From contig LCMB01000003.1 in assembly GCA_001002415.1 (NCBI GenBank), positions 12,489 through 76,488 of the forward strand: 64,000 nt of DNA, in the 5' to 3' direction. Below, piece after piece: positions 20,882 through 64,000 of this stretch. This DNA is from Microgenomates group bacterium GW2011_GWF2_46_18. GTDB taxonomy: Bacteria > Patescibacteriota > Microgenomatia > UBA1400 > UBA12108. Position numbers and translations under genes: made by a program. Numbering within the stretch: position 1 is the first letter of the stretch; each line of letters starts with the position of its first letter. The notes beneath the pieces were generated by a model. The model was not told where the DNA came from. It did not search any database and worked only from the letters and a program-made list of their open reading frames with translations.

Positions 20882-20954
20882 GCCACCTTAGCTCATCCGG
20901 TAGAGCAACGGTTTTGTAAACCGTAGGTGCTGGGTTCGAGTCCCAGAGGTGGCT
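20882..20954 (+). tRNA. tRNA-Thr (anticodon UGU)
   Basis: Acceptor GCCACCT/AGGTGGC, anticodon stem ACGGT/ACCGT with loop TTTGTAA, T loop TTCGAGT. No encoded CCA. Confidence 0.85.
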
Positions 20955-40295: not shown

Positions 40296-40954
40296 ACAAT
40301 CGTACCCACGCCGAATTTTTTCTCCGCGTTGTCGGGGGAGATCGAGTAACCATCATGCAATCACCTCTCGCTTACTCTGTTGGCGCCATACTCCTGCTAG
40401 ATTTCCTCTACCGGCTTTATCAACGCGACTTCCCTCGCCATTACCGATTCCTTCTTACTTGGCTTCTGATCCCTACCCTCCTTTCCACTATCATCTCCCT
40501 CCTCTTTACTCCCGTCTTCTATTATCGCTACCTCATTTTTTCCGCCATCCCCATTCTGATTCTGACTGTTCAGGCTCTCAAGCGTCTGCCTCAAATCATC
40601 TTTCTCTTGATCGTCATTGTTCTCCTTGGTGCTCAAGTCTACGTTGATTATCGAATTTTCTCTCAATACCCTCGTTCTATGCGTGAAGAAGTTGCCGAAC
40701 TCTACCAAACCAAGGTAAAAAATGATCAGAACGTCTATACCGTCCTACCTTCCTTTGCCGAAGTAGCCTACTACCTCCCCCACACATCTCCCATCAAAGT
40801 CCTGCCGCTCGGTCTCATTCAATTCTCCGGCAAATCACTCCTCGATGCCTACGTCCGCCTCGGTAAAGCCGAGATTGTCGATGGGGTTACTCCTTACTAT
40901 CTCCTCGAACCAGGCCCCAAAACAAGCCTTATCGACACAACTAAGGTAAAATAA
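40292..40954 (+). CDS. C-terminal part of the same GT39-like glycosyltransferase, or a separate gene
   Basis: TM-rich then a soluble C-terminal domain. Its frame is open upstream to 40082, reading ...LLLFERNKILALLPSALGVLLIQLPWLPTLL.... Confidence 0.45.
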   Translation: MNNRTHAEFFLRVVGGDRVTIMQSPLAYSVGAILLLDFLYRLYQRDFPRHYRFLLTWLLIPTLLSTIISLLFTPVFYYRYLIFSAIPILILTVQALKRLPQIIFLLIVIVLLGAQVYVDYRIFSQYPRSMREEVAELYQTKVKNDQNVYTVLPSFAEVAYYLPHTSPIKVLPLGLIQFSGKSLLDAYVRLGKAEIVDGVTPYYLLEPGPKTSLIDTTKVK

Positions 40955-44370: not shown

Positions 44371-44434
44371 CGGTCGGATTATACCAAACTACATTTCCGT
44401 TGGGGCCTGGATCCCCAATAACCCCAATCCACTC

Positions 44435-46096: not shown

Positions 46097-48289
46097 CTAC
46101 TCATACCTTAAAGCATCCAGGGCCGAAATCTTGGTTGCGCGTCTGGCTGGGTAAATCCCCGTTACCACCCCCACCGCAAAAGATAATATCAAGACGAACA
46201 CGACGAATAACGGGGGAATATAACTAATATCTATCCACCCCACTCCCTTTACAATCGCAAAGGTTGAAAGTACTATCCCCAACAACTTCCCTGCCAAAAA
46301 TCCTGTCAGTACCCCAAATACTCCTCCCAAGAGTCCCATCGCCATCGCTTCTGCCAAAAACAACTCTTTAACCTCCGAGCTCTGCATTCCCATCGCTTTC
46401 ATAATCCCCACCTCCCGTGTCCGCTCCATCAGTGACACCGTTAACGTATTAAACATCCCCAGCGATGCCACCGCCAAAGCCACCAAGCCAAAAGTCGCTA
46501 ACACCGCTCTGGCAGTTCCAAATAACCGATCAATCTGTGCCACCGTGTCAGCCACCGAGGCCGTTTTGTACCCCAAGTTATCAATTTGCTGACGAATCTT
46601 TTCCAGATCACTCTTATCCTTAGCCACCAACTTAACTTGGGAATAATTAGTTGTCCCCAAACCCACAATATCCCCTAATGGTACGTACACCAAGGGTGTA
46701 CTCCCCTCTTCAATTACCGCCGAAACTGTATACACTGTCGGTTTTGATTCCGCCGTCCGATCCAAATCTGGTTTCAGTGTATTGAGAATCACAAATCCAA
46801 TCTCAAAAGTCGATCCAACCGCCTTATTCACATCTATTCCCAACAATTCAATAAAGGCTCGATTTACTACCGCCTGTCTCTGCATCGACTCTGGTGTTTC
46901 AATCATTAGTACCGCGGCTGCCTGAGCACTCTCTGAGGCGCTCTCTCCAATTGACACCCACTCTACTCCATTCTCATCCGTCCCAACCACCATCGCCGAA
47001 ATAGAAGCCGCCGGATTCACGCTCGTCACAATCTCCGCACTCCCACTGGCCTCCCCCAAAACCGTTCCATAATCAGTATCATCATCCCACTCGATGTAAC
47101 TACTCGCATCTTCGTCCACCATCACCCCAACTTCGGCAATGTATCCTTCTCTCCATTCCTGGATCCGTTCGCTATCATAAACAACCTCGTAATTAAATCC
47201 TTTCTTCTGCCACAACGGGTATGGAGCCTTAATCCATCTCCCCAATACTACTCCCTGAACACTGCGTCCTTCCCCACCCCGCTCGTCTTCCTGGTAACTC
47301 TCGCCCCAATACTCCACTCCTTCATATCCCCCTTCCACCCTCTTTACGTAACCCAAAATCTCCGCACCTTTCCGAGGTTCAGCTAATACCTTGAGATAAA
47401 TCTCTGGTTCTACGTTAAATTCGACATTGCGGATTCGACTTCCAAAACTAGCCTCTTGAAAATTCCATTCGGTACTGACTCCCGCCACTCTCACATCGGG
47501 CAATAACCCCGCTTCTTCTCTGGTGGTAAACCAATCTCCCTTAATTTTGTTCAATCCCGCCACCTCCAAATACTCTCCACTCACTCCATAAACCACACTC
47601 TCGCTATTTCCCCCTTCAAAAAATACCTTCCCGACCAGTGACACTATCGGCATCACCTTTTCCACCCCGCCGATATTTTGCATGGTTTGAATAGCCTCCC
47701 CGTCCAATCGAATATTCGAGGCCTGACCGATCGTGACATCGGCCATTTTTAATTCTTCCAGCCGCGCCACCCGCGAAACTACTAGTCGTTGTAACCCATA
47801 CCCCACCGAAACCAAAAACACAATCGCCGCAATCCCCACCCCCATCCCTCCCACTGTCACAAATGATCGAGTTCTTTTAGCTCGCATATTTCGGAAAGCC
47901 AAAGCGATGAGAAAGCTTCGCCGCACCCCTCCCCTGTGTCCTTCTAACTTAGCAATTACTCTCTCTCCCCAATTCCCCAGTTTAGTTTGCCAAAATCGAT
48001 CCGTTGAACTGACAATTTTCCCCAATATCTTGATCTGCCCAATCATTTTCCATAATAGCTCAAGCAAAAATACCAATAACAAGCCAAAGAAACTTAACAG
48101 TGACAAAATTGTTTTACCCTCTTCTTGTAGCTTAATTACCGTTTCTTTGGAGAAAAAATGTCTCCAATTCCGCAGTCTTTCCTTCCATGACCTTTTAGGA
48201 ACTTTTACCCCAGCCGTTCGCTCCTCAGCTTTGGCTTCATGTTGATGGTTTTGCAGTAAATCAGCTAACATTATTTTCTCCTCTTCCAA
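46097..48289 (-). CDS. ABC transporter permease, FtsX/MacB family with large extracytoplasmic domain
   Basis: N-terminal TM, a ~450-aa extracytoplasmic domain, and a C-terminal 3-TM FtsX module ending GIYPARRATKISALDALRYE. Confidence 0.75.
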   Translation of the reverse strand: MEEEKIMLADLLQNHQHEAKAEERTAGVKVPKRSWKERLRNWRHFFSKETVIKLQEEGKTILSLLSFFGLLLVFLLELLWKMIGQIKILGKIVSSTDRFWQTKLGNWGERVIAKLEGHRGGVRRSFLIALAFRNMRAKRTRSFVTVGGMGVGIAAIVFLVSVGYGLQRLVVSRVARLEELKMADVTIGQASNIRLDGEAIQTMQNIGGVEKVMPIVSLVGKVFFEGGNSESVVYGVSGEYLEVAGLNKIKGDWFTTREEAGLLPDVRVAGVSTEWNFQEASFGSRIRNVEFNVEPEIYLKVLAEPRKGAEILGYVKRVEGGYEGVEYWGESYQEDERGGEGRSVQGVVLGRWIKAPYPLWQKKGFNYEVVYDSERIQEWREGYIAEVGVMVDEDASSYIEWDDDTDYGTVLGEASGSAEIVTSVNPAASISAMVVGTDENGVEWVSIGESASESAQAAAVLMIETPESMQRQAVVNRAFIELLGIDVNKAVGSTFEIGFVILNTLKPDLDRTAESKPTVYTVSAVIEEGSTPLVYVPLGDIVGLGTTNYSQVKLVAKDKSDLEKIRQQIDNLGYKTASVADTVAQIDRLFGTARAVLATFGLVALAVASLGMFNTLTVSLMERTREVGIMKAMGMQSSEVKELFLAEAMAMGLLGGVFGVLTGFLAGKLLGIVLSTFAIVKGVGWIDISYIPPLFVVFVLILSFAVGVVTGIYPARRATKISALDALRYE

Positions 48290-49094
48290 TATGTGTACTC
48301 TTGGTATCTCCGGCTACTTCCAACTCTTGGATATGTCTGGCTCCCCGCTTCCCTGCCATTTCCTTAAAGAGTTTACTCACTTCGGCCTGATTATATTCAT
48401 TCTCAATTTTTCCATCTACCACTCGAATCATCCTGGTCGCATACTTCAAGTATTCCAAGTCATGAGTCACCATCACGATAGTTCTCCCATCCTGCTTATT
48501 CAAATTAGACAATAGCTGCATTAACTCTTCTCCTGACTGGGTATCCAGATTTCCGGTTGGTTCATCCGCCACCAAAATAACCGGGTCATTAATTAAGGCT
48601 CTCGCCAAAGACACTCTCTGTTGCTGTCCACTCGATAACTCCGTCGGTGAATAATTTTGCCAATCTTCCATCCCCACGATTTTTAACATCTCTAGCGATT
48701 TTCCAAATGCCTCCGACGGCATCTGACCCAACAAAAACAAAGGGAAGGCCACATTTTCTAGTACCGTTAACGACTTGATCCAATATGGCTGTTGATACAC
48801 CATCCCTACTCGGGTTTTCCGAAACTCCGCCGCCTCATCCTGACTCATCTGCGCAAAATCTTTCTCTAGTAACATCACTTTCCCCGCGGTCGGCTTTTCC
48901 AGTCCTAGCAGGGTGTGTAATAAAGTACTCTTTCCTGATCCCGATGGTCCAAAAATGACAAAGAAATCCCCCCCGTGAATCTGGGTAGATACATCCTTTA
49001 ACACCTGAACTTCCTGTGTTCCCACCTGATAATTCTTATTCACATGCTCTACACTCATGACTGGAGAATTTTTACTTACCGTTATATTACTCAT
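48261..49094 (-). CDS. ABC transporter ATP-binding protein (MacB/LolD-like)
   Basis: Walker A GPSGSGKST, signature LSGGQQQRVSLARAL, Walker B ILVADEPTGNLD. Confidence 0.8.
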   Translation of the reverse strand: MSNITVSKNSPVMSVEHVNKNYQVGTQEVQVLKDVSTQIHGGDFFVIFGPSGSGKSTLLHTLLGLEKPTAGKVMLLEKDFAQMSQDEAAEFRKTRVGMVYQQPYWIKSLTVLENVAFPLFLLGQMPSEAFGKSLEMLKIVGMEDWQNYSPTELSSGQQQRVSLARALINDPVILVADEPTGNLDTQSGEELMQLLSNLNKQDGRTIVMVTHDLEYLKYATRMIRVVDGKIENEYNQAEVSKLFKEMAGKRGARHIQELEVAGDTKSTHIGRGENNVS

Positions 49095-49112
49095 ATCTTT
49101 ACTACCAGTTTA

Positions 49113-52100
49113 CTAGTTACTCCCGTAATTGCCAAGGAATCCAAAGGCTTTCGAGAGATTAATAATTACCAAGTTAAGCGCACTCTGGGTTGCTTTAGGG
49201 GTAATCACTACCCGGTCCACCGATTGAGATTCATTATCCGCATCATCAAAAGAAATTGCCTTAACATGATAAACTCTCGAAGGTTGAAGATTGGGGACGA
49301 CTACTACATGATTATATGTTAAATCAGTATCATGCTGAGTTTTATTCACCAAATTCCCACTTGATCCTTCCCCATACGCTACCTGAGAAGTTGAGAGTTC
49401 ATCCGTATCCCACGCCACAACTAATTGTGCCGTAGTTTCTTCTCCCGCCCCTTGTATCACTGTCTCTACTTTCAAATTGGCCAATACCGGTGGTCGAGTA
49501 TCAGTCGCCGTGGTAAATGTTTGCGGATTACTCAAAGCCTCGTTGCCAATCTTATCTCTTCCTTTAACAATCAGAGTATACGCCGTATTAGGCAATAGTC
49601 CCTCAATCAACATTGTATGGGCTTTCACTAATTTAATCTCAATCTTATCTTGCGCCGCCGAAGCATTGGCTGATGGATAATAAGTCACAATACTCGAAAT
49701 TTCTGTGTTACTAGTCCAAGTAACCAAAACTGTCGAACTAGAGGATCCCCTCACCTGTTGTAACCTTACCGTCGCAATTTTTGGCCGAGGTAAAGTAGTA
49801 AAATCCAAAATCGTCCCCTCATATTCTGCCGTTTCTTCGTCAAACACATTAATTCTGTAGTAATACTTAGTCCCGTCAGTCAAACCAGATAATATCGTAG
49901 AATATGTCGTTTCACTGGTAGAAGTAGTCAAGGTCGTAGAACCACCAAAACTATTTGTTGTCCCGTAATATATTTTTACTTGACTAGCTCCAGTCACTGT
50001 ATAATTAATTACCGCTGAATCCAATCCAATACTAGTTACGTTCACGTTTTGTGCTACCGGTGCAGCATCTGTCGTAAAACTATACTCACTACTAGTTCCC
50101 GTATTGCCATCTTCATCCGTCCACTTAGCTTTATAATAATAAGTCGTCCCTGGAGATAATCCCGTTAGTTGAATTGAGTGCGCCGCCACTTGACTTGAAT
50201 TACTCGGTTCCACACTCCCATAGCTCCCACTGCCTGTCCCATACTGAATTTTTGAATCAGATGTTCGATCAGTCGACCAGGTTATCGTCGCTTTCTTGGT
50301 TGTAATCGATGACACTGCCGGATTAACACTCAATCCTGGCGCACTGGTCCACTTACCGGTCGGAGTTATTGAAACCGCATTTGTCCCGGAAGAAATCGCT
50401 TCAGCTCCATCCTGAGAATATACTTTGTAGTAATAAAGAACGGAAGCCGGAGTATTGTCCACATAGGAAAGACCGGAAGTACTACCTACCCGAGAAAAAC
50501 TAGACCCATCGACAGAACGATAAATCAGATAAGTTAAATTACCCGCTCCCTGGTAACTCGGAGCTGTCCAGGTCAAGGTCACATTCCATTGAGATGAAGA
50601 TTTAATACTAGAATCTGAAGCAACTAAATTACCCACATTGTCCGGATCGGTTGAATTTAAAGTAAAGCTACCGGAAATATAGTTGCTGGGAGAGTAATTT
50701 GGGGTTTCGGCATCATCTATTGCCACCACATAAACCGTGTTCACCCCTTTATTAACATTGGGTAAAGCAGCAGCGACTAAAGTAATTTCAGTACCATTAT
50801 CCCAATAGGTACTGGCATTACCTTGCAGTGTCGCCAAAGATGAAGGCGGACTGGTATTAATCATGTAATAGTAACTAGTCACATTTTGACCATCGGTCGG
50901 TGTTGCCTCCGACCATGAAAGAGAAAACTCATTGGTATCTGAAGTAGTAGGATCAATTGTTACCACACCATCTCCAGGAAAACTCGGAGCCTCCCCACCG
51001 TAAGTCAAATTACCGGTCCGGTAAGTTGCCGCCGAAGAGGGATTGCCGGCATTGTCGACCGTCCGGAAATAAACCACATTATTGCCAGTTATTACATTAG
51101 CTTCATCACGAGCAGCAATAAATGTATATGCAGAGGCAGTAGCCGGGATATAGTCCAAATCAAATTCCGCATTATAAGTCGTTCCCTGCCAAGAACCGGC
51201 ACTCGAATTAAGCTGATATTGCCAACCCAAAACTCCCGATTCGGAATCGGAACTGGCACTGCCACCACTAGTCGGCCAAGAAAAATTCATATCCACTACA
51301 TTAGAAAAATTAGTTGAAGGCATAGTCAGATAAGCTACATTAGTAGGGACAGTACTATCGTACTTAAAGCTCACCAAATCCTGCCAAGGACCAGCGATAT
51401 CATTGGCCACATTCCCAGCCGCATCCACCGCCTTAATCGAAAACCAATACTGTTTGTTAGTCGGTAAAGTTAAACCAGAAATCGAACTCAAATCCACGCT
51501 TGTTCCGGCAACAATATAAGGACAAGTTGAGTTATTGGTAATTCCATCATCCAAACCGTTCATCTCTCCTGCATCAGTCTCCGGATTAAGACTAGCTGAC
51601 GGAGTTGCATCTACCGTTTGCTCATCCAAAGAGATACAGTAACCAGCAACAGCCGTATCATCAGTCCCAGCTGTCCAAGTGATGGTAGGTTCAGTACTCG
51701 TCCAATTCCCACTGGTTAACCCAGTAATTGCCACATTAGCTGCATTCACGCTAGGTCTCAATTGATCTGAAGCTGTAAAAGGAACAGAAATATCATAAAG
51801 CTCCGGAGATAATGCTCCCTGGACAGTCAAAGTTGCCTGGTATTGAAGATATTGATCCTGGTCAGTAACACAATCAGTTTCTGTCAGATCTGTCCCAGAA
51901 GCAATCCCACTACAAGACCCCCAATCCGTAGCCCCAGACATATCCGGACTGCTATCAGTTCTAACTTTAATCGTTACTCCGGACCCTGAAGCCGTGTAAC
52001 TCAACTCCCCCCAGTCAGCCGCAAATCCGGCATCCAAAATATTCGAAATCAAAATACCAGAATCAGGATACTGACTTACCTCATCAGCGATTGTATTAAA

Positions 52101-53360
52101 AGCATTCGTTTCAGATTTGTAAGAAGCTGCAATCCAAGCGGCTGAACGTCCAATATCTGAAACTCTAATTTCATCGAGAACTCCATTAACATAATAGCTA
52201 GGTGCAAGTTTACCAATTGTAGTTGCACTCCCGGTAGAAAGCGCCCCTGATACTGATTGAGAGCTTGTTTGAACCCCATCAATATAGGCCTTTAGTGTTT
52301 CTCCGTTATACACCAAGCCTAATTGATGAAATTGCCCATCTCCCAGCCCACTTCCACTATTAAATACTTGTCTCCCCATCGTTGCTGTCGTGACTCCTGC
52401 TCTAATTTGTCCTGTGCTCTCAATCGCATCCAACTCAATCTGGGTACCTTGCATATAAATCGTATGATATCCACTCCCTGCCACTCCTAATCTCTTAAAC
52501 CAGGTAGTAACTGTCACTTGTGAGGCTGGGCTAATCGCAGTAATCGTAATGTTATCGCCGGCACCATTAAAGTGATCTGCTCCATCAATCTGACCAATGT
52601 CTGCCCCTTGCTCGGTCACCGTTACACTATTTGAATCAAAATTATTTGCAGTCGAATCATAGTGAACGCCACTGCTCTCATTAAAATGTTGGACCATCTT
52701 ATAACCACTATTCCAAACACTACTTTCTGTTTGTCCATCACTCGCTCCGGTATTACCGTAATATATATATACATAATCAGTGTTAGAATTTTGATCAATT
52801 TGGGGAACTTTAACCCACACGTATGAAGACCCGGTTTCATCCCACTTCTCGATTTCATAAGCCAAAACCGTCCCATCAGAATCAGTGAATCTCAAATCCT
52901 GACCCAAGTCTTGAGTCTTGGTGTAATCAATATTTGTCCCTGTGTCCAGCTTCACCAATACCGGGAAATCAGTTAGATTTTCACTAGTTACTCCCAAAGT
53001 AGCGTCAGTATTATCAAAGGTAATCTTCCTTCGATATGCCCAATTATGATAATCACTACTCCAACCATCCGTCTGATCAAGGACAATCAAACCAGCGCTG
53101 GCTGTGGCTTCAACTCCATCCAAACTCGTCCAGGTATTTACTGTCTCAGAAACTAACGTGGAACTATCCCCTCCACTCCAGTCCGTTTGGACCCATGGCG
53201 TACTTGTCGCTCTAATTCGTGGAATTACCACATCATTCACCAAGAAAAATAGTCCAATCGCCATTCCAGCCGTCAACGCACTAATAACCGCCATCTGTAA
53301 CCACACAAACGAAAACCTTGGTTTCAAATATCGATTTATCAACTTTTCTTTGATCGTCAT
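49113..53360 (-). CDS. Giant surface protein (1415 aa) with LamG/concanavalin-like and multiple fibronectin-III-like domains
   Basis: N-terminal TM/signal anchor. Ser/Thr/Gly/Asn-rich beta-sandwich repeats. Its C-terminal ~640 aa is paralogous to the C-terminus of the adjacent 2355-aa protein and ends ...LNLVIINLSKAFGFLG.... Confidence 0.7.
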   Translation of the reverse strand: MTIKEKLINRYLKPRFSFVWLQMAVISALTAGMAIGLFFLVNDVVIPRIRATSTPWVQTDWSGGDSSTLVSETVNTWTSLDGVEATASAGLIVLDQTDGWSSDYHNWAYRRKITFDNTDATLGVTSENLTDFPVLVKLDTGTNIDYTKTQDLGQDLRFTDSDGTVLAYEIEKWDETGSSYVWVKVPQIDQNSNTDYVYIYYGNTGASDGQTESSVWNSGYKMVQHFNESSGVHYDSTANNFDSNSVTVTEQGADIGQIDGADHFNGAGDNITITAISPASQVTVTTWFKRLGVAGSGYHTIYMQGTQIELDAIESTGQIRAGVTTATMGRQVFNSGSGLGDGQFHQLGLVYNGETLKAYIDGVQTSSQSVSGALSTGSATTIGKLAPSYYVNGVLDEIRVSDIGRSAAWIAASYKSETNAFNTIADEVSQYPDSGILISNILDAGFAADWGELSYTASGSGVTIKVRTDSSPDMSGATDWGSCSGIASGTDLTETDCVTDQDQYLQYQATLTVQGALSPELYDISVPFTASDQLRPSVNAANVAITGLTSGNWTSTEPTITWTAGTDDTAVAGYCISLDEQTVDATPSASLNPETDAGEMNGLDDGITNNSTCPYIVAGTSVDLSSISGLTLPTNKQYWFSIKAVDAAGNVANDIAGPWQDLVSFKYDSTVPTNVAYLTMPSTNFSNVVDMNFSWPTSGGSASSDSESGVLGWQYQLNSSAGSWQGTTYNAEFDLDYIPATASAYTFIAARDEANVITGNNVVYFRTVDNAGNPSSAATYRTGNLTYGGEAPSFPGDGVVTIDPTTSDTNEFSLSWSEATPTDGQNVTSYYYMINTSPPSSLATLQGNASTYWDNGTEITLVAAALPNVNKGVNTVYVVAIDDAETPNYSPSNYISGSFTLNSTDPDNVGNLVASDSSIKSSSQWNVTLTWTAPSYQGAGNLTYLIYRSVDGSSFSRVGSTSGLSYVDNTPASVLYYYKVYSQDGAEAISSGTNAVSITPTGKWTSAPGLSVNPAVSSITTKKATITWSTDRTSDSKIQYGTGSGSYGSVEPSNSSQVAAHSIQLTGLSPGTTYYYKAKWTDEDGNTGTSSEYSFTTDAAPVAQNVNVTSIGLDSAVINYTVTGASQVKIYYGTTNSFGGSTTLTTSTSETTYSTILSGLTDGTKYYYRINVFDEETAEYEGTILDFTTLPRPKIATVRLQQVRGSSSSTVLVTWTSNTEISSIVTYYPSANASAAQDKIEIKLVKAHTMLIEGLLPNTAYTLIVKGRDKIGNEALSNPQTFTTATDTRPPVLANLKVETVIQGAGEETTAQLVVAWDTDELSTSQVAYGEGSSGNLVNKTQHDTDLTYNHVVVVPNLQPSRVYHVKAISFDDADNESQSVDRVVITPKATQSALNLVIINLSKAFGFLGNYGSN

Positions 53361-53376
53361 ATGTTTATCTTGTTAA

Positions 53377-56300: not shown

Positions 56301-59300
56301 CCCCCGGGAAATTCGCAATCGCACTCCAACTGTCCCCACTCACGCTATAACGGTAACAACTGGCGGTATTGTAACCTTTACAGGCATACAAATAATCTCC
56401 TCCTGAATCAACCAAAAAGCCATCGTTATAAACCGAGTCACTCAAAGCCGTTAAGGTACTCCAGCTACCTCCCGCCACATCATATCGGTAAAGCGGGTTA
56501 GGATTGACTGCACTTCCCCGCATGATATACAAATATCCGTCCTTATAAACCAGTTGGGCTCCGTAACTGACAGTCGCCGTAATATTGGTCAGAGTACTCC
56601 ACTTATTCCCCGCCGATCCTTGCGTATCAAACCGGTAAAAGCTGGTTGTTCCCGCCCCCCTCGCATAATAAATATAACGCGATCCATCATAAGCGAGCGA
56701 TGATCCCGCCCCTGGATCAACCGGCAGCAAATCATCTGCTTCCCGGCTCCAGACATTCGTCGCTATATCGTACACATAAAAATTATTATTAATATTGCTT
56801 GTGCTCGCATAAATTTTCTCTGCGGTACTGTCATAAACCAACGCTCCTCCCAAATACATTCCTCCCGGCACATCTGCTAGCTCTGTTGCGATCCCAGTTG
56901 TCGGATCATACTTAACAAAAGTACTATCCTGATTCCCTCTGGTTAGGTAGTAATTGCTTCCGTCACCTTTGATAATATCTGCTCCATATCCTTGGGTCGC
57001 CAGATCACTTCCAAAAAACATCTCCCGGAAAAATCCTCTTTCGGGTACTAACCACTCCGCTTTGGCAATATCATAAATCGCCATACTAGTAGTTGCCATC
57101 CCTCGCACTGCATACAACTTCCCTCCGGCATTGCGCATCGAACTCCCTAGCCCCAAAGTCCATGGCGCCTCATCCAACTGGCTCCAGGTATCACTCGCAA
57201 TCGCATATTTATATAGATAAGGTTTTCCTCCGCCAGGGATCATGTACAAAGCATTGCTAGTCGTGTCATACTGTAAATGTCCCCCCTGATAAACGTTGTG
57301 CGGAGTTTTGGCCAGCTGAGTCCAAGTATTGGTACTGATGCTGTAAGCTGCTAGTCCGGTATACTGCGTACCCTGCAAAGCATAAATCGTATCTGCCCCG
57401 TCATACGTCAAAGCTGCTCCATAATTAATCAAATTACTGATTTGTTCTGTTGTCGCCCCAAAATCCACATTTGCCATCGATTCCCAACTGTCATTTGTTG
57501 TGTTATAGCGCATAAATGCATCATCCGAAGTTCCCCGCAAAGCGTAAATATACTGAGTTCCGTCATATACTAGCGCCGAATCATAATAAATTGTCAGTGG
57601 TGAATCCGTCGCCGCCGCATCATCCCACGTATTTTGCGCAATATCATACCGCCAAAAAGTACTTGTCTGATTCCCGGCAAAGGCATACAAATACCCTCCC
57701 GGTCCCTCCACAATTTTGCCTCCATAATGCACCACCGCCGGAGTATCCGCTAGGGTCGACCAAGTACTGCTCGCAATATCATAACTATAAAAATTTGCCG
57801 TGTTATATCCCCGCAGGGTGTACAACTTGCTGCTGGTACTGACATATGCCGTACTGGATCCGTAATACGGTGCCGCCGGTATCAGTCCCGGAGCCTCTTC
57901 CCGCCAAAACCCAGCTTTCCCCGCCAACTTAATCTCATCACCTGTAATGGTCATGTTATCTACCGTACTCCCCGCAAAATCACCACTACTTGTATATGCC
58001 ACACTAGTCGCCACCACCCCCTGATACCCATAGGTAAATCCGCTTGCCACACTACTAGTATTACCAGCACTATCCTTGGCTACTACCCGCAAGTAATATG
58101 TCCCCGTGGTCAAATTACTGGTAACCACATAATCGCTTGTTGTCTGGTAATTTCCGGCTGTAATTGGATCAGCACTCGCATTAGTCCCGAAATACACATA
58201 ATACCCTGCCACACTAGTTTCGGCATCGCTTGCTCCACTCCAACTAAAGTAAGGATAGTTGTACCGGTAACTACTCCCCGAAACCAAGGTACTCCCTCCC
58301 ACCTCACTCGACTTTCCAGTAAATGTGGTGGGTGCCGTCGGTGCTGTCACATCCCCTTGATAATTGATCGTTAGAGCTGTCAAAGTCGGGGTTTCTGTCC
58401 GATCTGTACTTGCTGTCAAAGTTGCTCGCACTTGGATGTAGCGGTTGACACTTGACCCAATCGTAGTTCCCGCTACCGCCGTCCACTCTCCCCACGTAAC
58501 TTTGTCGGCACTTGTTCTCGTCTCGTAACTAATACTACTATCGCCAGGCTTAGTTGCTGTTTCCACTAAAGATGTCCACGCCGTCACATATGTCAAATCC
58601 TCTACCGGACTAATCCACGTCCCACTCGCTAAATAATCATTGGCATCAATCGAATAGCTTGCCATATTCAAAATACTCGCTCCCACCGCCGAATACAAAA
58701 TCGCGTTTATGGTATCAACGACCAGCGCTCCGCCGTTATAAGCTCCCTGATGATATCCGTAGTACTCGTTTAATGAATCCAGATACAGCCACTCTCCGCT
58801 GCTAATGTTGTATCTCCAGAATTGACCTTTGTAATATCCAGCCTGAATATAGATATTTCCATCCCAATAAACTGCATCACTCCCCCAATACGGTGCATAC
58901 GGTAGCGATGCTACTTCACTCCAAGTATCAGTTGAAATCGTATATTTCAACAAAAATCCGGTTCGCGAACCAGAAACATAGTAAAGATTCGTCCCATCCG
59001 AAAATAGCCTAGCCCCATAACTCGCTTCACTGTTATTAGGAAGGTCAGTTGGGGTATCTTCCCAGCTATTCCCCGAAATTGAGTAACGATAATGTTTGAG
59101 GGTATAACCTCCTACGGTTGCATAAAGATAATCACCACTCCCAGGGTACGCCAAACTGCCTCCATAATTTACATTTGCCGGAGCCACCGCCATCGTCGCC
59201 CAACTATCTGCCGCCGGATCATAGCGGTAAAAATTAGTAGTATTACTCCCTTGGAAGAAATATAAGTAACTACCCGCCACCACTCCTGTCGTATCATCAT

Positions 59301-60444
59301 TAAAGGCTGCCGGCGCCACCGCCCTCGACTCCCAGGTCTTACTCGTCAGGTTATAACGATAGAAAGTGGTGGTGTTGGCTCCTCTCGGTTGATAAATATA
59401 TCCCCCGTAATACACCAAATCCGAACCCGATCCTGGAGCCAGAGTCATATCTACCGGTCCCAAATACCCATCTGTATCTGGATCATACTTCCAAAATTCA
59501 TACGTTCCATTTCCTCTAAACACATAGATCATGTCATCTATCGCGTTATACACGCTCCCCACATAACGCGAAGCTTGGGGTAAGACCGCCATCGTGCTCC
59601 AACTATTGCCCGCAATGTCGTATCGATACATTGTGGTGGTATTTCCATTCAAAGTAATGTAGATATACGCTCCTCTGATAGCTGCATGACTGTCTTCCGC
59701 AATCACCGCCGTCATATTTGTCATGGTGGACCACGTTCCCGCCGCCACTGAATATCGATACATGGTATTAGTCGACACTCCGCGCAGAGTGTAAAAATAC
59801 CCGTCGTTATACACCAATGAGGCTCCGTAATTAATCGTTGCCGGCGTCCCCGTTAACATACTCCACTCACCCGTGCTAGTCGTATATTTCCAAAAGTCAG
59901 TCGTACTATTACCATGCAAGGCATAAATATCCGTTCCGTTCGTCGCCAAACTACCTCCGCGGTAAACCAAGTCGGGTGTATCTGCTAACTCGGTCCAAGT
60001 ATTATTAGTTATGTCGTACCTGGCATACTCTTTTTGATACCCCCCAAACATGGCGTAAAGATATCCATCCAAATACACCATATCTGAGCCGTATCCCGCC
60101 GAGTAAGGAGCCGAAGCCAAAACTTCCCACCGATTAGTTGCCTGATGGTATCTCGCAAACCACGTGTCATATCCTGCCAAGACATAGACATACTCCCCAT
60201 CCGACTCAATCGCTGTCCCTGTCGTCAACGGTAGTTCCGGTGTCTGCCAGGCTCTCTGTTCCCACTCTCCCGCTGATCTTAGCTTAATCTCCCCTGCCGA
60301 ACTCTCCCCGGTTACCCCATTAAATACCCCCGTCTCCCACTCCGCAGTCTCGCTGTAATCAAAGCTTGTAGCCTTCACATTAACCACCCCTCCCAAGATG
60401 AGAAGTCCACTCAACACCAATACTTGACCGACTCGTTTAATCAT
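53377..60444 (-). CDS. Giant surface protein (2355 aa) with multiple Kelch/beta-propeller repeat blocks and FN3-like domains
   Basis: Signal peptide. Dozens of ~45-aa Y-x-Y/W-containing repeats (YRYD...NSW/TW...) arranged as several propellers, separated by FN3-like modules. The C-terminus is shared with the 1415-aa neighbour. Confidence 0.7.
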   Translation of the reverse strand: MIKRVGQVLVLSGLLILGGVVNVKATSFDYSETAEWETGVFNGVTGESSAGEIKLRSAGEWEQRAWQTPELPLTTGTAIESDGEYVYVLAGYDTWFARYHQATNRWEVLASAPYSAGYGSDMVYLDGYLYAMFGGYQKEYARYDITNNTWTELADTPDLVYRGGSLATNGTDIYALHGNSTTDFWKYTTSTGEWSMLTGTPATINYGASLVYNDGYFYTLRGVSTNTMYRYSVAAGTWSTMTNMTAVIAEDSHAAIRGAYIYITLNGNTTTMYRYDIAGNSWSTMAVLPQASRYVGSVYNAIDDMIYVFRGNGTYEFWKYDPDTDGYLGPVDMTLAPGSGSDLVYYGGYIYQPRGANTTTFYRYNLTSKTWESRAVAPAAFNDDTTGVVAGSYLYFFQGSNTTNFYRYDPAADSWATMAVAPANVNYGGSLAYPGSGDYLYATVGGYTLKHYRYSISGNSWEDTPTDLPNNSEASYGARLFSDGTNLYYVSGSRTGFLLKYTISTDTWSEVASLPYAPYWGSDAVYWDGNIYIQAGYYKGQFWRYNISSGEWLYLDSLNEYYGYHQGAYNGGALVVDTINAILYSAVGASILNMASYSIDANDYLASGTWISPVEDLTYVTAWTSLVETATKPGDSSISYETRTSADKVTWGEWTAVAGTTIGSSVNRYIQVRATLTASTDRTETPTLTALTINYQGDVTAPTAPTTFTGKSSEVGGSTLVSGSSYRYNYPYFSWSGASDAETSVAGYYVYFGTNASADPITAGNYQTTSDYVVTSNLTTGTYYLRVVAKDSAGNTSSVASGFTYGYQGVVATSVAYTSSGDFAGSTVDNMTITGDEIKLAGKAGFWREEAPGLIPAAPYYGSSTAYVSTSSKLYTLRGYNTANFYSYDIASSTWSTLADTPAVVHYGGKIVEGPGGYLYAFAGNQTSTFWRYDIAQNTWDDAAATDSPLTIYYDSALVYDGTQYIYALRGTSDDAFMRYNTTNDSWESMANVDFGATTEQISNLINYGAALTYDGADTIYALQGTQYTGLAAYSISTNTWTQLAKTPHNVYQGGHLQYDTTSNALYMIPGGGKPYLYKYAIASDTWSQLDEAPWTLGLGSSMRNAGGKLYAVRGMATTSMAIYDIAKAEWLVPERGFFREMFFGSDLATQGYGADIIKGDGSNYYLTRGNQDSTFVKYDPTTGIATELADVPGGMYLGGALVYDSTAEKIYASTSNINNNFYVYDIATNVWSREADDLLPVDPGAGSSLAYDGSRYIYYARGAGTTSFYRFDTQGSAGNKWSTLTNITATVSYGAQLVYKDGYLYIMRGSAVNPNPLYRYDVAGGSWSTLTALSDSVYNDGFLVDSGGDYLYACKGYNTASCYRYSVSGDSWSAIANFPGAIYYGGAAASDGSGKMYVLPGPGTNSYANGLYTYVMESSTTSFEEAGSYQSATIDLGEVYRLANLTLTYSSATNNTLTVSTRTSTDGVVWDAWVSANEEKAVGTSYEYKINSTVQRYLQVQFELASSDGIYSGVIADYSIKYYSDTTPPTNASELSAYTTATASASMVTNTWYNHTSPYFDWPDAEVTGGASDTETGSAIVGYYVYFGSDSDADPETAGTLITPSSFTASSLVTGSTYYLRIKSKDDAGNVSGTAWQPFIYKYDNEAPNVPTGLAADPSGYTAVNDFDFSWESATDSASGGIEYCYKTATASGTLASDQCTSGVSVTGITGYQTGTNTFYVRSRDTAGNYSSYTTGSFYYNNGAPSAPTSLTVTPETNTVNSFEFEWEAPVAYYGSLVNLQYYYSVNALPTESSVTRAYSNSLGASAYATLPGENTLYVVVMDEAGNVDYDNYASVTFTANTTAPGIPLNADIADVSVKASSAWKLALTWESPSSVGAGVASYQVYRSTDGVTYTQRASTSGISYVDTGLSQITYYYKIRACDSANNCGAFSSAVSLYPDGKYTTAAPLVGEPEVGEITTKKAEVDWTTSRTADSKVAYGTASGDYFDEEVGNSDQVTVHSLTLNNLSPGATYYFVAKWTDEDGNLGSSEEYTFATDPAPTAKEVKAVSIGLDTVNIQFTSKDASKAKVYYGTTTAFGGYSEMGVGTAESTYTVQLTGLADGTKYYYKVSLFDSENNEYEGDTYSFETLPRPRIDLVKLQQVKGTATGTILVTWVTNTPISSIITYYPSANPSAAQDNIDVKLVTAHRALISGLLPNTAYTMVVKGRDKVGNEAVASAQTFSTASDTRPPSIANLKVEPVILGVGEEATAQLVVSWDTDELSTSQVAYGEGSGGSLGSKTQQDSNRTFNHLVVISNLQPSKVYHLKALSMDEASNEATSVDRVVITPKETKSALNLVVSNLSQAFGFLGGIAGN

Positions 60445-61084
60445 TTGTCTCTATTTCTTCCAATGGATAAATTAATGATTCCTGATTAACCACGTATGGT
60501 TCATTTTCGCTTTGCCCATATTCCTCTTCTCCTACTACCAGATAAAATTTAATTTCTTTCCCCTCTTCCACCTCCAATAACAAATCGTGCTCTTTTGTCT
60601 CCACATTCCCTTCATTAGCTACCATTACTCTCTCAATTGACTCTCCCTGATAACCCCAGACCATAATCCCCAAGGTCTTATCATAAGTTTGCCACCTGAC
60701 TCGCACCAATGTTTCCCCCAACCGCTCAATCCGTACGTCTTGAGGATACTCAATTTTTAGCACCCGATAATTTACATATACTTGTAGTACCACTAGTGCC
60801 ACAAACACCAATCCATCTACAATCCACCAACCCAACCACCTCACAAACTCAAATCGTCCAGTTTTCCGCGCCCTCACTAACAATCTAATTAATTGATATA
60901 GCCACAAGATACTCACCAGCACCCAAGATACCCAAATTATTTTCAGATCATGGCTGTGCAAATTATCCCGATACTGTTGATTTAGTACCGACGAAACTAC
61001 TAGCGCCGAATCTTGGTAAACCTGCGCCCCCATTATTTTTCCTGTTTCGATCCACTCAAAATTTGCCATATTAGTAACTCGCAA
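60437..61084 (-). CDS. Membrane protein, hypothetical (first gene pair of the giant-protein operon)
   Basis: Two TM helices then a ~120-aa acidic C-terminal domain. Overlaps the giant gene by 8 nt. Confidence 0.45.
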   Translation of the reverse strand: MRVTNMANFEWIETGKIMGAQVYQDSALVVSSVLNQQYRDNLHSHDLKIIWVSWVLVSILWLYQLIRLLVRARKTGRFEFVRWLGWWIVDGLVFVALVVLQVYVNYRVLKIEYPQDVRIERLGETLVRVRWQTYDKTLGIMVWGYQGESIERVMVANEGNVETKEHDLLLEVEEGKEIKFYLVVGEEEYGQSENEPYVVNQESLIYPLEEIETND

Positions 61085-61367
61085 GTAACCTTGCGACCTC
61101 CTTTTTGGTTTTAATCAGATCTAATATCTGGGTATTCAACTTCCACCTAAGTCCCACCTTATCCTGGGCTTTCCCCATCGGCTCAATCAAACTAATCCCC
61201 CGAAATCTAGTTCGCGACAAACTCGACAATACTCCCCCCAAAACCTTCTTTTTGAGAGGAGTTCCCGCCTCCATTTGTCTTACTGTCAAAATTTTCTCCC
61301 CACCCTGAAGAAAATAAGCTAGTAACAACAACTGGTTATAACTCAACCGCGCGATTTTATTCTGCAC
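61071..61367 (-). CDS. Small basic protein, possible winged-helix regulator
   Basis: 98 aa; LSYNQLLLLAYFLQGGEKILTVRQM resembles an HTH recognition segment. Overlaps the next gene by 14 nt. Confidence 0.3.
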   Translation of the reverse strand: MQNKIARLSYNQLLLLAYFLQGGEKILTVRQMEAGTPLKKKVLGGVLSSLSRTRFRGISLIEPMGKAQDKVGLRWKLNTQILDLIKTKKEVARLLASY

Positions 61368-61458
61368 TTACCAGAGACTAGCATACTACTCGTTCTTATG
61401 CAACTATCAGTAGTTTATATAGTTTATATAGCTAACATTCTTTAATCTCTGGATACGA

Positions 61459-62352
61459 TTAGAAATTAACCTCGATTATGCCTTCCTGATCCGTCCGAGC
61501 AATTTCTGTCCCAACTCGCTCTAACCTCTCTAATGTTTCCTGTGTCGGGTGCCCATAGCGATTCCCCTTCCCCACACTAATGATCGCCAATTCTGGTTTG
61601 ATTCTTTCCAAAAATGGGAGAGTACTGGCATACTTTGATCCATGATGACCTACTTTGAGGATATCTATGTCAGGTAACCCTCCCAACTCCAATAAGGTTT
61701 TCTCTGTCTGGTCACCCGCATCTCCCATGAGGAGAATTTTTCGATTATCCTCTAGTAAGAGCAAAACAACACTCCGCTCGTTCACCTTTCCCTCCTTGGC
61801 ACTTGCACCTAGTATCTGCTCGCGCATATTTTTTTCCATTTGTTGGCTAAACACCGCCACATATTCCCTGTTTGTTTCTCTCGGCCACACTACCTCCAAT
61901 TCTATTTTGCTCTCCTCCCCCACTCGTCCCACTCGTAGTTTTTGCCCTCGCTCAACTCCTGTTACCGGGATTTGTTGCTCAATCAAAATCTCTCTCAATT
62001 TGGTAAGAGTACTACTTGCTCGCACCCCATCAGCTGTTACAAACTGTATCACCTCATATCTTTCTATTACAGGTATCAACCCCGCCAAATGGTCGTGATC
62101 CGTATTGGTCAACACTATAAGTTCGATTCTCCGATCATAGAAGGGCAAGTATTTTTCCAGGCAGGTCAAAATTTTCTCCTGACTTGGTCCTCCATCCACC
62201 AGTACTTGGTTACTACCCTTGATCAAAAGGATCGCATCCCCCTGCCCCACATCACACACTACCAAGTGTATTCGTTCATCAGGCATCTGACCTAGGATCA
62301 GAATTATCAACCCCACTAGTAACCCAACTCCATACCACCAACCTTTGTTCAT
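61459..62352 (-). CDS. ComEC/Rec2 C-terminal metallo-beta-lactamase domain protein
   Basis: N-terminal TM, then LVVCDVGQGDAILL and HHGSKYAS motifs of the ComEC MBL domain. Confidence 0.7.
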   Translation of the reverse strand: MNKGWWYGVGLLVGLIILILGQMPDERIHLVVCDVGQGDAILLIKGSNQVLVDGGPSQEKILTCLEKYLPFYDRRIELIVLTNTDHDHLAGLIPVIERYEVIQFVTADGVRASSTLTKLREILIEQQIPVTGVERGQKLRVGRVGEESKIELEVVWPRETNREYVAVFSQQMEKNMREQILGASAKEGKVNERSVVLLLLEDNRKILLMGDAGDQTEKTLLELGGLPDIDILKVGHHGSKYASTLPFLERIKPELAIISVGKGNRYGHPTQETLERLERVGTEIARTDQEGIIEVNF

Positions 62353-63509
62353 AAATTACCCCACCATTCAATAACTCTCACCATCCACCATAGAGGCACG
62401 TACAAAATCCATCCGATCACCTGCCCCACTCGCATGCTCAAACTTCCGGCCCCCACTACGACTGCCGCCAGCAACATTATTAGTGGCACGATCGGTAAAA
62501 TTAGTAAATTAACGATCGGGGAGATCCACGCTACTCTCCCGAAATGCCACCAAATAATCGGTGCCGTCGCTACACTCGCCGCCACCGTCGGATAAATGTA
62601 CTCCGCTCCCAGCCCCACCTTAACCTTGTGCAACTTTGGCTCTAAATATAATAATCCTGCCGTCGCCGAAACTGACAATTGCCACCCTACATCTGCAATT
62701 AGCAGTGGGTTTATTAACAACATGCCGTAAGCCGCCACCCATAGTAGCCTTTTGGCTTCCGTCGGCCTCCCCCAAAAATATGCCATCAAAGTTAGGCTCC
62801 CCATAATCCCCGCTCTAACCACGGACGCCGACCCTCCAGCTAATCCGACATACACTCCAATCCCCGTGATCCCCACAATCGTAGCCACTCCCCGGCTGAA
62901 CCATCGCTTAAATAGACTCATCAATACTCCCGCCACAATCATCACGTTAAATCCCGAAGCCGCAATCACATGGAGCGTGCCTGTTGCCACCAATTGGTCA
63001 TAAAATTCTCGGGGCATCTCTCCCCTCACCCCCAAGAGTATTCCCGCACCCAAGCTGGACATGGGCTCTGGCAGGGTTTTTTCCAATATGGTTACCCACT
63101 TCTTCCTCCATTTTCCCAACCCAATCTGGATCACTTCAATCAAAGATAACCTCCTTTGGTTTTCTCTCTCGATAATCTCAAAATTCGGATCCATCATTTT
63201 AATTTGCCGCTCTTTCCCTCCTAGCAATAACGGGATAACGCTGCCAACAAAGCGGACCTTGTCCCCTTGGTTAATTCCTGCATCACTCTTTAGTTTGATA
63301 TACCATCTTCCCTGGCGTATGATCACATTTGATTCAGTCTGTTCTGGTTTATCCAAGATCGGTGCGGTAAAACTGACCACCGATTCGGGTGTCCAACTCG
63401 TCGGTAAGATTTTCGGTAAACTTACCCATCTCAGCCACAAAATTATCAATAAAATAACAAACATGCCGAGATTTGCAGAAGAAAATTTACTTTTCATTTC
63501 AATACACAC
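62349..63509 (-). CDS. comEC: ComEC/Rec2 N-terminal DUF4131 plus Competence (channel) domain protein
   Basis: TGTLHVIAASGFNVMIVAG matches the ComEC competence-domain signature; polytopic. Its stop overlaps the downstream MBL ORF start (ATGA). Confidence 0.7.
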   Translation of the reverse strand: MCIEMKSKFSSANLGMFVILLIILWLRWVSLPKILPTSWTPESVVSFTAPILDKPEQTESNVIIRQGRWYIKLKSDAGINQGDKVRFVGSVIPLLLGGKERQIKMMDPNFEIIERENQRRLSLIEVIQIGLGKWRKKWVTILEKTLPEPMSSLGAGILLGVRGEMPREFYDQLVATGTLHVIAASGFNVMIVAGVLMSLFKRWFSRGVATIVGITGIGVYVGLAGGSASVVRAGIMGSLTLMAYFWGRPTEAKRLLWVAAYGMLLINPLLIADVGWQLSVSATAGLLYLEPKLHKVKVGLGAEYIYPTVAASVATAPIIWWHFGRVAWISPIVNLLILPIVPLIMLLAAVVVGAGSLSMRVGQVIGWILYVPLWWMVRVIEWWGNL

Positions 63510-64000
63510 TCACCTGATCTTTGATTTTCTCATACACACTCTCTGGTATCTTGGCTTTACTCACCAACTCCTCCGTACTCCCATATGGTCGGTTCGCGAC
63601 AATCGCCTGTGCTCTCACCTCCCCAATCCCCGTTAGTTTATCCAATTCTGCCACACTCGCTGTATTGATATTAATTGTTTTCGCTTGATTACTTATTGTT
63701 TGGTTATTGGTTATTGGAATTTGGTTATTAATTTCGTTTCTCGTGGGTATATAGATTTTCCCGCCATCCTTTATTTCTTGTGCCAAATTCATCGTTTGTG
63801 CCACCCACTGTCTGTCCGCCTCAGCCGATAACCCTCCCGCCAAAACAAGCGCGTCTCCGATCCTCGCTCCCGTTGGCAATTTATAGACTCCCGGCGTAAT
63901 CACCTCGCCGCCCACGTCAACCACAATCTCACCCCCTTTTTCTATTGAACTTGATTGCACAATTTCCACCACTGCCGGCTCCGGCCAAATCACTCCCCAC
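63499..64000 (-). CDS. comEA: ComEA DNA-binding competence protein (SLBB plus tandem HhH), 5' end outside window
   Basis: ININTASVAELDKLTGIGEVRAQAIVANRPYGSTEEL is the ComEA HhH motif; an upstream SLBB-like segment precedes it. Confidence 0.7.
   Translation of the reverse strand, partial: WGVIWPEPAVVEIVQSSSIEKGGEIVVDVGGEVITPGVYKLPTGARIGDALVLAGGLSAEADRQWVAQTMNLAQEIKDGGKIYIPTRNEINNQIPITNNQTISNQAKTININTASVAELDKLTGIGEVRAQAIVANRPYGSTEELVSKAKIPESVYEKIKDQVSVY

Follow-up and report, generated by a model that had tools for sequence, protein, structure and literature searches.

A conserved module of giant surface proteins and a MacB/FtsX-type ABC transporter in Patescibacteria

Introduction

Patescibacteria, a vast group of bacteria of which most are uncultured, are thought to live attached to other cells, and the manner of attachment is largely an open question. 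A locus that bears on this question lies in a 64,000-nucleotide (nt) stretch of DNA, hereafter the window, from contig LCMB01000003.1 of Microgenomates group bacterium GW2011_GWF2_46_18, an ultra-small groundwater bacterium of the Patescibacteria (also known as the candidate phyla radiation, CPR). Ten open reading frames (ORFs) follow one another on its minus strand, from comEA through two giant surface proteins, an ABC ATPase and an FtsX-type permease to argS. Do the giants and the transporter belong together, are the competence genes part of the same apparatus, and what might such a transporter do for surface proteins of 2355 and 1415 amino acids (aa)?

Our results indicate that the giants, the ATPase and the permease form a conserved unit and that the competence genes are neighbors in this lineage only. 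We consider it on balance probable that the unit serves giant adhesins of modular build, as a dedicated type VII ABC mechanotransducer by which they are anchored or deployed. Other type VII ABC systems are already known to work with extracytoplasmic partners; what is new here is the class of partner and the wide distribution of the module in Patescibacteria. A preliminary description of this DNA stated that no characterized system has such a composition, and our literature search likewise found no description of a giant plus MacB-type ABC module. The proteins as such have been noticed in papers on Patescibacteria, which report "very large surface proteins with adhesion domains," with FN3, concanavalin, FhaB or DUF2341 domains, as fast-evolving orphans (PMC13059738, PMC11809585); one of these two papers found no full-length homologues of them.

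Results

We built a permease profile from 20 relatives and used it to search one-genome-per-species contigs, which yielded 451 genome loci with permease relatives. The window proteins were split into domains and mapped onto the best 80 of these loci by tblastn and ORF calling. All counts out of 80, 74 or 72 given below refer to this sample, 74 being the loci used for ATPase-permease adjacency and 72 those with enough flank to judge the position of the giant. The ATPase adjoins the permease in 73 of 74 loci and is fused to it in about eight. A protein with the C-terminal module of the window giants lies directly upstream of the ATPase (<600 nt) in 65 of 72 loci, with a median gap of 29.5 nt. 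It was found one to three genes further upstream in three loci (L027, L073, L077) and on the other side or divergently oriented in two (L048, L037); a giant is present within the locus in 70 of 72. No other family was recovered in more than 19 of the 80 loci when neighboring ORFs were clustered. The order of giant, ATPase and permease is kept while the other neighbors are not, which indicates that these three components constitute the conserved unit. It had been considered that related genomes might show no synteny between giants and transporter, or that the pair might be a housekeeping unit always located next to argS. Synteny is instead retained, and argS follows the permease only in the close relative L008 and lies about ten genes away in L046.

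The unit also varies in copy number. Three or four giants stand in tandem before one fused transporter in L087 and two in L042; two giants with one transporter, as in the window, is a recurring variant. Some genomes carry two complete units (L029/L034 and L026/L048). Many module contigs are labeled as non-Patescibacteria (among others L010, L011, L015, L018, L063, L065, L071 and L086), with assignments to uncultured Gammaproteobacteria/Pseudomonadales, Limisphaerales, Anaerolineae, Aerophobetes or Bdellovibrionales. Gene order in L010 and L011 matches that of the Collierbacteria contig L012, L065 is likewise syntenic with L059, and this agreement with CPR contigs suggests that the labels reflect mis-binning or placeholder taxonomy.

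We then approached the association from the giants. With the C-terminal 120 residues of the smaller giant (giant B) as query, an exhaustive phmmer search returned 4552 cluster representatives at E<=1e-3, 2115 at E<=1e-10 and 304 at E<=1e-30, the lower-scoring matches including unrelated FN3 proteins. The tail motif ends 80 of the best 148 matches, which range from 402 to 6321 aa in length. The tail has an "FGF" form, which the window giants share, and a divergent "FGW" form (...LTPQK..SIIQLII.NFE.TFGWLKK). Co-occurrence of AFGFLG-tailed proteins with the ABC pair had been proposed as a check, and in four of five informative giant-first look-ups (P0202, P0130, P0249 and P0307) the giant is followed by an ABC_tran protein and a MacB_PCD/FtsX protein; a further look-up, P0246, ended at a contig end and was uninformative. 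The FGW subfamily has a permease of ordinary size (398-404 aa) and a longer ATPase (460-483 aa). FGW giants also precede an ABC pair, which indicates that the association is independent of the permease subfamily used as query. The window locus itself shows the complete arrangement: an FN3-like end with the tail ...TPK.....AL.LV...L...FGF/W, followed by the ATPase and the FtsX/MacB_PCD permease.

The two giants of the window are built on a common plan. Giant A (2355 aa; 53377-60444, minus strand) begins with a signal peptide; two Kelch beta-propeller regions come next, each with beta-sandwich/FN3 domains behind it, and a conserved FN3 stalk and a C-terminal helix complete the protein. Its Pfam matches are Kelch_6 (2.3e-38), Kelch_4, Kelch_1, fn3 and Pur_ac_phosph_N. 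Its one N-terminal hydrophobic segment (residues 5-23) lies within aa 1-25, MIKRVGQVLVLSGLLILGGVVNVKA/TS (60370-60444, minus strand), and the sequence suggests that this N terminus is probably a cleavable signal peptide (...VKA/TS), with a predicted cleavage site, and not an anchor. Giant B (1415 aa; 49113-53360, minus strand) begins with the motif RYLKPRFSFVWLQ and a hydrophobic helix at aa 23-41 (53211-53360, minus strand), a variant of the leader YFFEPRFHFSRFQFNL plus transmembrane segment (TM) plus IFA/xNDT that is common to many B-type giants. This N-terminal signal anchor is followed by a head with DUF2341 (aa 153-237) and Laminin_G_3 (aa 266-411) domains (together 52128-52904, minus strand), a beta-sandwich, an FN3 stalk and a C-terminal helix (Pfam: DUF2341 1.8e-15, Laminin_G_3 1.2e-16, Pur_ac_phosph_N 8.7e-18, fn3 1.1e-11). 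Both proteins had been described as carrying N-terminal signal anchors; each does have one hydrophobic segment, but that of giant A looks cleavable. Neither giant was placed in a curated NCBIfam family.

The C-terminal module of giant A that is shared with giant B by BLASTP extends from aa ~1599 to 2355 (53380-55650, minus strand) and ends in the tail SALNLVVSNLSQAFGFLGGIAGN (53380-53448, minus strand). We modeled the corresponding part of giant B (aa 904-1415; 49116-50651, minus strand) with AlphaFold2 (AF2; model mcf7dd2d76cce). With a mean predicted local distance difference test score (pLDDT) of 90.2, the model places an alpha-helix (model residues 491-502, ALNLVIINLSKA) at the very end, after five FN3-like beta-sandwiches. 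Foldseek matched this model only to tandem-FN3 ectodomains of a generic kind, gp130 and fibronectin among them, and to no specific relative. The giants are 49% identical over 799 aligned residues (BLASTP) and 59% identical over the last 512, so the common module, previously put at ~640 aa, is better described as ~510-800 aa long. The near-identical tail noted at the same time is real: ...ITPKAT.xALNLVIxNLxxAFGFLGG is kept in all ~70 giants that we aligned, whatever their head. This tail is amphipathic, and as its Kyte-Doolittle mean across 18 residues is only 0.8-1.35, which is too polar for a C-terminal transmembrane anchor, we ruled out such an anchor.

The two giants had also been regarded as paralogs, which as a local duplication does not fit their relationships. 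The C-terminal module of giant B is 67-68% identical to giants of L016, L025 and L035, from distant lineages, versus 59% to giant A, and in the closest relative, L007, an A-type giant abuts the ATPase with no giant B between them. By these comparisons, giant B did not arise by recent copying of giant A. The heads that stand N-terminal of the stalk differ completely among relatives. Double Kelch propellers are found in giant A and in L010-L012, L039, L067, L069 and L084, where full-length giant A relatives lie upstream of an ABC ATPase and FtsX-type permease. DUF2341/LamG heads occur in giant B, L019 and L070. Other relatives carry LamG alone, FGE-sulfatase/C-type-lectin folds, or regions without any match.

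Some of these heads are targets of diversity-generating retroelements (DGRs). In 19 of 80 loci, genes for bAvd and a reverse transcriptase are found upstream of the giant, at a distance of a few genes. Searching these loci for repeat pairs whose mismatches fall on the adenines of one copy, we identified template repeat/variable repeat (VR) pairs with adenine-specific mismatches in 17 of them. In 11 of the 17, the VR is part of the giant gene itself and begins 1.1-1.3 kb into it: L016 (5683-5801), L020 (5769-5884), L025 (5737-5858), L026, L029 (5376-5491), L036 (3800-3919), L044 (5500-5619), L045 (5736-5857), L059 (5483-5601), L065 (5484-5601) and L076 (5402-5526). The template repeats lie 2-3.5 kb upstream of the VRs. 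In five other loci (L017, L030, L040, L061 and L066) the VR falls at the junction of a 380-434-aa head ORF, which ends in the variable repeat ...NNNVGFRCASD, and an overlapping or adjacent stalk ORF (for example, 4396-5700/5598-9122 in L017, 3390-4652/4589-8008 in L040 and 4535-5740/5598-9134 in L061). These two-ORF loci are either genuine splits or frameshifts that arose in assembling a hypervariable region. In L014 the VR lies in another gene.

In L020, L029 and L076 the head matches FGE-sulfatase as far as about residue 410-418, the place to which the VR maps, which identifies the giant head as the DGR target in these lineages. The VR is internal in these relatives (~aa 330-440 of a 1400-1630-aa protein) and not C-terminal. 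Most DGR variable regions in a large survey were C-terminal (PMC5758913), and CPR DGR targets were reported to lack, typically, recognizable transmembrane or conserved domains (PMC8144416). DGR targets in general are ligand-binding proteins (PMC8144416), and mutagenesis of the giant head therefore argues for ligand or host binding. The 64-kb window contains no reverse transcriptase, bAvd homologue or C-type-lectin (CLec) head, so the DGR link bears on the function of the family and not directly on the window locus. Other genes recur around the unit as well. About 11 loci carry genes resembling a type IV secretion system (T4SS) 3' of the permease, including T4SS-pilin/TrbL/VirB6-like proteins, PrgI, a VirB4-like ATPase with a TraG P-loop and an M23 peptidase (L030, L059, L064, L065, L066, L020, L055, L061 and L029, all at ~12-19 kb; L045 at 18577-21112), and response-regulator and PAS histidine-kinase genes recur near the unit. 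The window has no VirB4-like, TrbL, PrgI, M23, response-regulator or histidine-kinase gene. Across the other lineages, the neighbors are DGR cassettes, T4SS-like genes, two-component systems or unrelated genes.

The transporter belongs to the type VII ABC superfamily and lies outside every characterized family within it. The ATPase (277 aa; 48261-49094, minus strand; ABC_tran 1.6e-31) is of the LolD/FtsE/MacB type; its best NCBIfam models are LolD (219 bits), FtsE (196 bits) and MacB, all below their cut-offs. The permease (46097-48289, minus strand; 730 aa, or 724 aa by gene callers) matches FtsX (PF02687, 3.6e-18, residues 599-722) and MacB_PCD (PF12704, 7.8e-18). It presents an N-terminal helical extension, TM1 (~144-166), an ectodomain, and TM2 (~595-613) to TM4. 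The FtsX four-helix domain, the MacB_PCD domain and a cognate ATPase, which together define the type VII or MacB/FtsX class, are all present. The large extracytoplasmic domain first estimated at ~450 aa exists but measures ~400-430 aa between TM1 and TM2; it includes a beta-rich insertion of ~200 aa with conserved glycine, tryptophan and tyrosine positions, and the enlarged ectodomain contains invariant columns. Permease relatives are found over the full length down to ~40% identity, the named ones coming from Microgenomates, Collierbacteria and Pacebacteria. As a side observation, residues 1-140 form an extension with a strongly hydrophobic helix (aa 61-79) that most unfused relatives retain and that is only weakly hydrophobic in the ATPase-permease fusions. 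A fifth membrane span formed by this helix is doubtful, since a single added span would invert the topology in the fusions.

The AF2 model of the permease (pLDDT 75), in which the TM2-4 helices are seen, matched MacB (5gko), LolCDE (9rld), Spr0694-5 (5xu1) and YtrEF (9o9x) with a Foldseek probability of 1.00. The titles of the matched entries include LolCDE-lipoprotein, FtsEX-EnvC and MacAB-TolC-YbjP partner complexes, and for several members of this fold class with solved structures the protein acted upon is an extracytoplasmic partner. Equivalog models were not reached: the permease scored 80 bits on MacB (cut-off 966), 73 on LolCE (TIGR02212, cut-off 362) and 37, 38 and 26 on the FtsX models NF038347, NF038346 and TIGR00439 (cut-offs 225, 250 and 255). 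We detected no membrane-fusion adaptor of the HlyD family between 41.6 and 64 kb and no second permease or sensor kinase at the locus; a single permease gene is present in the window and in related loci.

These matches raise the alternative that the ABC pair exports a small substrate, such as an antimicrobial peptide, a lipid or a toxin, in the manner of an ordinary MacB-type exporter or resistance pump, and merely shares an operon with the giants. Many MacB-like systems of Gram-positive bacteria are resistance or efflux modules, the Foldseek matches include Spr0694-0695, YknZ, BceAB and HrtBA, and the source annotations of relatives read "ABC-type antimicrobial peptide transport system permease." We nevertheless judge such a pump to be unlikely. 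Very divergent lineages keep the pair beside a protein with the C-terminal module (65-70 of 72 loci), and this adjacency survives head exchange, ATPase-permease fusion, changes in permease size and duplication of the unit. Such persistence amid neighbors that are not conserved would be unusual for unrelated functions.

It is also conceivable that the pair is a divergent FtsEX whose extracellular partner, here the giant, controls cell-wall hydrolysis as EnvC, PcsB or RipC do. Both are ABC systems of the same class with an extracytoplasmic partner, the ATPase reaches 196 bits on the FtsE model, FtsEX-EnvC is among the Foldseek matches and an M23 peptidase gene lies downstream in ~11 related loci. 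This M23 gene, however, belongs to the T4SS-like gene set. The permease reaches only 37-38 bits against cut-offs of 225-250 on the FtsX models and has a full MacB_PCD domain, which FtsX lacks, and the giants contain no hydrolase, LytM or coiled-coil domain. Two complete units in some genomes (L029/L034, L026/L048) and hypervariable, even DGR-diversified heads do not fit a housekeeping division factor. Taken together, we find a divergent FtsEX very improbable.

The ten minus-strand ORFs are all present, and the genes and domains listed in the preliminary description were recovered by our ORF and Pfam scans. The gene comEA (63499-63993) encodes SLBB (PF10531) and HHH_3 (PF12836) domains. A first comEC ORF (62349-63509) carries the Competence domain (PF03772, 7.4e-46), and a second (61459-62352), which overlaps it by 4 nt, carries the metallo-beta-lactamase (MBL) domain Lactamase_B; the latter scores 113 bits on TIGR00361, below the cut-off of 190, because comEC is split. 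All defining domains of ComEA (SLBB and HhH) and ComEC (Competence and MBL) are therefore present. Next come ORFs of 98 aa (61071-61367) and 215 aa (60437-61084), the latter with two hydrophobic helices and a beta-rich C-terminal half, and then the giants and the transporter. Consecutive gaps from comEA to the permease are -11, -4, +91, -14, -8, +16, +18 and -29 nt, with +27 nt to argS, in essential agreement with the 4-20-nt spacing and single ~90-nt break reported before. Spacings are measured from longest-ORF starts unless gene-caller starts are named; with the latter, the overlap of ATPase and permease is 11 nt instead of 29 nt. The 1415-aa protein and the gene order were found on contigs from 47 collection blocks at 99.9% DNA identity, and their presence in many assemblies indicates that the cluster is not an assembly oddity. 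Scans of 44-64 kb for consensus promoters and terminators returned sites fewer than or about equal to those in shuffled sequence, and they therefore say nothing about operon structure.

The co-directional arrangement led to the suggestion that competence genes, small genes, giants and transporter form one apparatus, in which the giants would capture DNA or cells for uptake by ComEA and ComEC. The genes are tightly spaced in this genome and in close relatives, and comEC also lies upstream in L008 and L012. A weak lead is kept alive by archaea, where type IV pilus loci encode DUF2341 proteins and Methanococcus maripaludis requires one such protein for natural transformation (PMC4858521, PMC10133366). 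Yet L008 and L012 are the only two of 80 loci in which comEC adjoins the giant, comEA and comEC being away from it in ~70 other loci with visible upstream sequence, and the 91-nt gap parts comEC from the rest of the cluster. Only four lineages have the 98-aa and 215-aa proteins, and other lineages have different neighbors: homologues of the former occur only in L008, L009 and L039, upstream of A-type giants, and the latter has a single homologue among the 80 loci, in L009. Consequently, a combined uptake apparatus seems highly unlikely to us, and comEA, comEC, argS and the two small genes are neighbors of this lineage only, the small genes being lineage-specific accessories and not core parts as had been thought.

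The 98-aa protein had been called a small putative regulator. It has no Pfam, NCBIfam or PDB match (the PDB sequence search returned nothing even at E=10), which led us to drop this label. It has 13 relatives in 5.8 billion proteins and is identical to a protein of Microgenomates group bacterium GW2011_GWC1_46_16. The 215-aa protein has no Pfam or NCBIfam match either.

The rest of the window looks like ordinary chromosome, with mreB, PBP2, glycosyltransferases, queA, dus and ribosomal protein L1. The argS gene (44435-46069) encodes 544 aa with a truncated DALR domain, ending in ...NALDRGGGKYS, versus 570 aa in the 99.9%-identical contig L001; the window is ~30 nt shorter than L001 at this end (44371-44434), and L003 and L005 show other indels there, without an argS gene call. 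The 3' end of this essential gene is either polymorphic or damaged. Two ORFs of 215 and 220 aa (39648-40295 and 40292-40954, plus strand) together make up a PMT_2/DUF6056-type glycosyltransferase that is a single 440-aa protein in L003-L005; the split is either a strain-level frameshift or an assembly error. The glycosyltransferase adjoins a PEGA-domain protein (38244-39647, plus strand), and WecG/TagA and GT4 genes lie at 33-36 kb, indicating an envelope-rich region. A 717-aa protein with TrwB/VirD4-type coupling-protein and TraG-D_C domains is encoded ~40 kb from the cluster (3214-5367, minus strand). Finally, GC skew is strongly negative across positions 1-64000 (-0.12 to -0.43 in 2-kb windows) despite genes on both strands, an unusually strong strand compositional asymmetry.

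Discussion

Our results indicate that the giants and the ABC pair belong together, and export, processing or anchoring of the giants, as first suggested for the pair, is still the most reasonable idea of its role. The exchangeable heads, the DGR diversification of some of them and the rigid, conserved FN3 stalk are consistent with surface binding proteins whose specificity resides in the head. The near-invariant pairing, together with the conserved stalk base and helix, suggests that the transporter recognizes the conserved end of the giant. In the mechanotransducer that we favor, each unit would comprise one or more large, Sec-exported surface proteins, an ABC ATPase and a MacB/FtsX-type permease. 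The exchangeable head would bind, the stalk would project it from the cell and the amphipathic helix would end the protein, with the stalk base and this helix docking on the permease. ATP hydrolysis in the cytoplasm could then be transmitted through the permease ectodomain, as from FtsEX to EnvC/PcsB or from LolCDE to lipoproteins, and the giant adhesin might thereby be held at the surface, released or reshaped. In the window, one transporter would serve two different giants. Synteny, conservation and analogy point to this coupling; the contact between giant and permease, the direction of action (anchoring or extraction) and the adhesive or host-binding role are thus proposed rather than observed.

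Several observations weigh against this interpretation. Two loci (L043 and L057) show no giant in their short flanks, and one tail-bearing giant (P0264) has no adjoining ABC pair. The confidence of the modeled tail helix is modest (pLDDT 68, dropping below 50), and the tail is too polar for a membrane span. The evidence for contact between giant and permease is indirect, and conserved operon membership can also reflect the co-regulation of separate envelope functions. The permease tree does follow the A or B type of the giant (7 Fitch changes versus 20.8 in shuffles), although this pattern is confounded by phylogeny, and the permease of L029, which accompanies a B-type giant, clusters with that of L034 from the same genome, which accompanies an A-type giant. 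For these two reasons, we did not use co-divergence of permease and giant type as evidence.

A sub-variant of the favored mechanism is that the transporter acts in a LolCDE-like manner, extracting the giant from the outer leaflet of the membrane by its N-terminal anchor or its C-terminal helix and releasing it to the wall, an S-layer or the medium; it would then perform a secretion or maturation step instead of anchoring the giant permanently. LolCDE-lipoprotein complexes are among the closest folds, B-type giants share the conserved leader YFFEPRFHFSRFQFNL with its TM and IFA/xNDT, and the C-terminal helix is amphipathic and not a membrane span. Conversely, the permease reaches 73 bits where the LolCE model asks for 362, it is encoded by one gene only, we identified no LolA-like acceptor and nothing tells release from anchoring. 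We regard LolCDE-like extraction as rather doubtful, if still plausible.

The module may have a wider meaning than the mechanotransducer as such. We tentatively entertain, as a possibility that we do not expect to hold in full, that it is the main, phylum-wide attachment machine of Patescibacteria: a MacB-type ABC motor coupled mechanically, by way of the FN3 stalk and the C-terminal helix, to interchangeable giant adhesins, with heads reprogrammed by DGRs in many lineages, in which ATP hydrolysis would actively extend, retract, release or re-set a host-binding arm on the outside. The ATP-driven giant "leg" proteins of gliding mycoplasmas are loosely comparable in concept. If true, this would represent a new class of ABC-powered surface machinery, and if the coupling is real, the partners of type VII ABC systems, so far hydrolase activators and lipoproteins, would grow to include giant adhesins. 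Since the giants share a stalk, a tail and a dedicated MacB-type ABC transporter, the tail motif and the gene order constitute a signature for finding them, and the permease ectodomain is a testable partner. Our analysis also gives a rationale for head swapping and links CPR DGRs to a defined membrane-associated machine.

How does the module compare with known systems? The type I secretion systems (T1SS) of RTX adhesins (LapA/LapBCE, MpIBP) similarly place a giant repetitive adhesin with a conserved C-terminal element beside a dedicated ABC transporter. T1SS use ABC_membrane-type exporters, a membrane-fusion protein and an outer-membrane channel, and their RTX substrates lack Sec signals. In contrast, the module has an FtsX-type permease in place of an ABC_membrane exporter, and both giants start with a hydrophobic Sec-type signal. 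The heads of relatives resemble DGR C-type-lectin targets in their FGE-sulfatase/CLec fold and in a VR templated by an adjacent bAvd-reverse transcriptase cassette; the module differs in that these VRs are internal rather than C-terminal and that the window has no reverse transcriptase, Avd or CLec head.

The transporter has closer counterparts. As in MacAB-TolC, Spr0694-0695, YknXYZ, YtrEF and BceAB, FtsX and MacB_PCD domains are combined, and some relatives fuse ATPase and permease as MacB does. Unlike these systems, the module has no HlyD protein, sensor kinase or TolC, its ectodomain is about twice as large and its conserved partner gene encodes a giant surface protein. LolCDE represents the closest fold class, the ATPase scores best on LolD, and the idea of pulling a membrane-tethered protein from the outer leaflet is shared; the module differs by having one permease gene versus LolC and LolE, a LolCE score below the cut-off and giants that are not lipoproteins (no lipobox was seen in them). 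The group to which the organism belongs is reported to have a single membrane (PMC11809585). FtsEX with EnvC, PcsB or RipC resembles the module in its separate ATPase and four-helix FtsX-type permease, which in the module would likewise act on a neighboring secreted partner. Unlike FtsX, the module permease has a full MacB-type core with an insertion and an N-terminal extension, and whereas the FtsEX partner combines a coiled coil with a (pseudo)hydrolase, that of the module is a 1400-2400-aa FN3 protein with Kelch, LamG and DUF2341 domains and no coiled coil, LytM or CHAP domain. From FtsEX to EnvC/PcsB, from LolCDE to lipoproteins and from MacB to MacA-TolC, ATP-driven movement is passed to extracytoplasmic partners, and the giants may be one further class of such partners.

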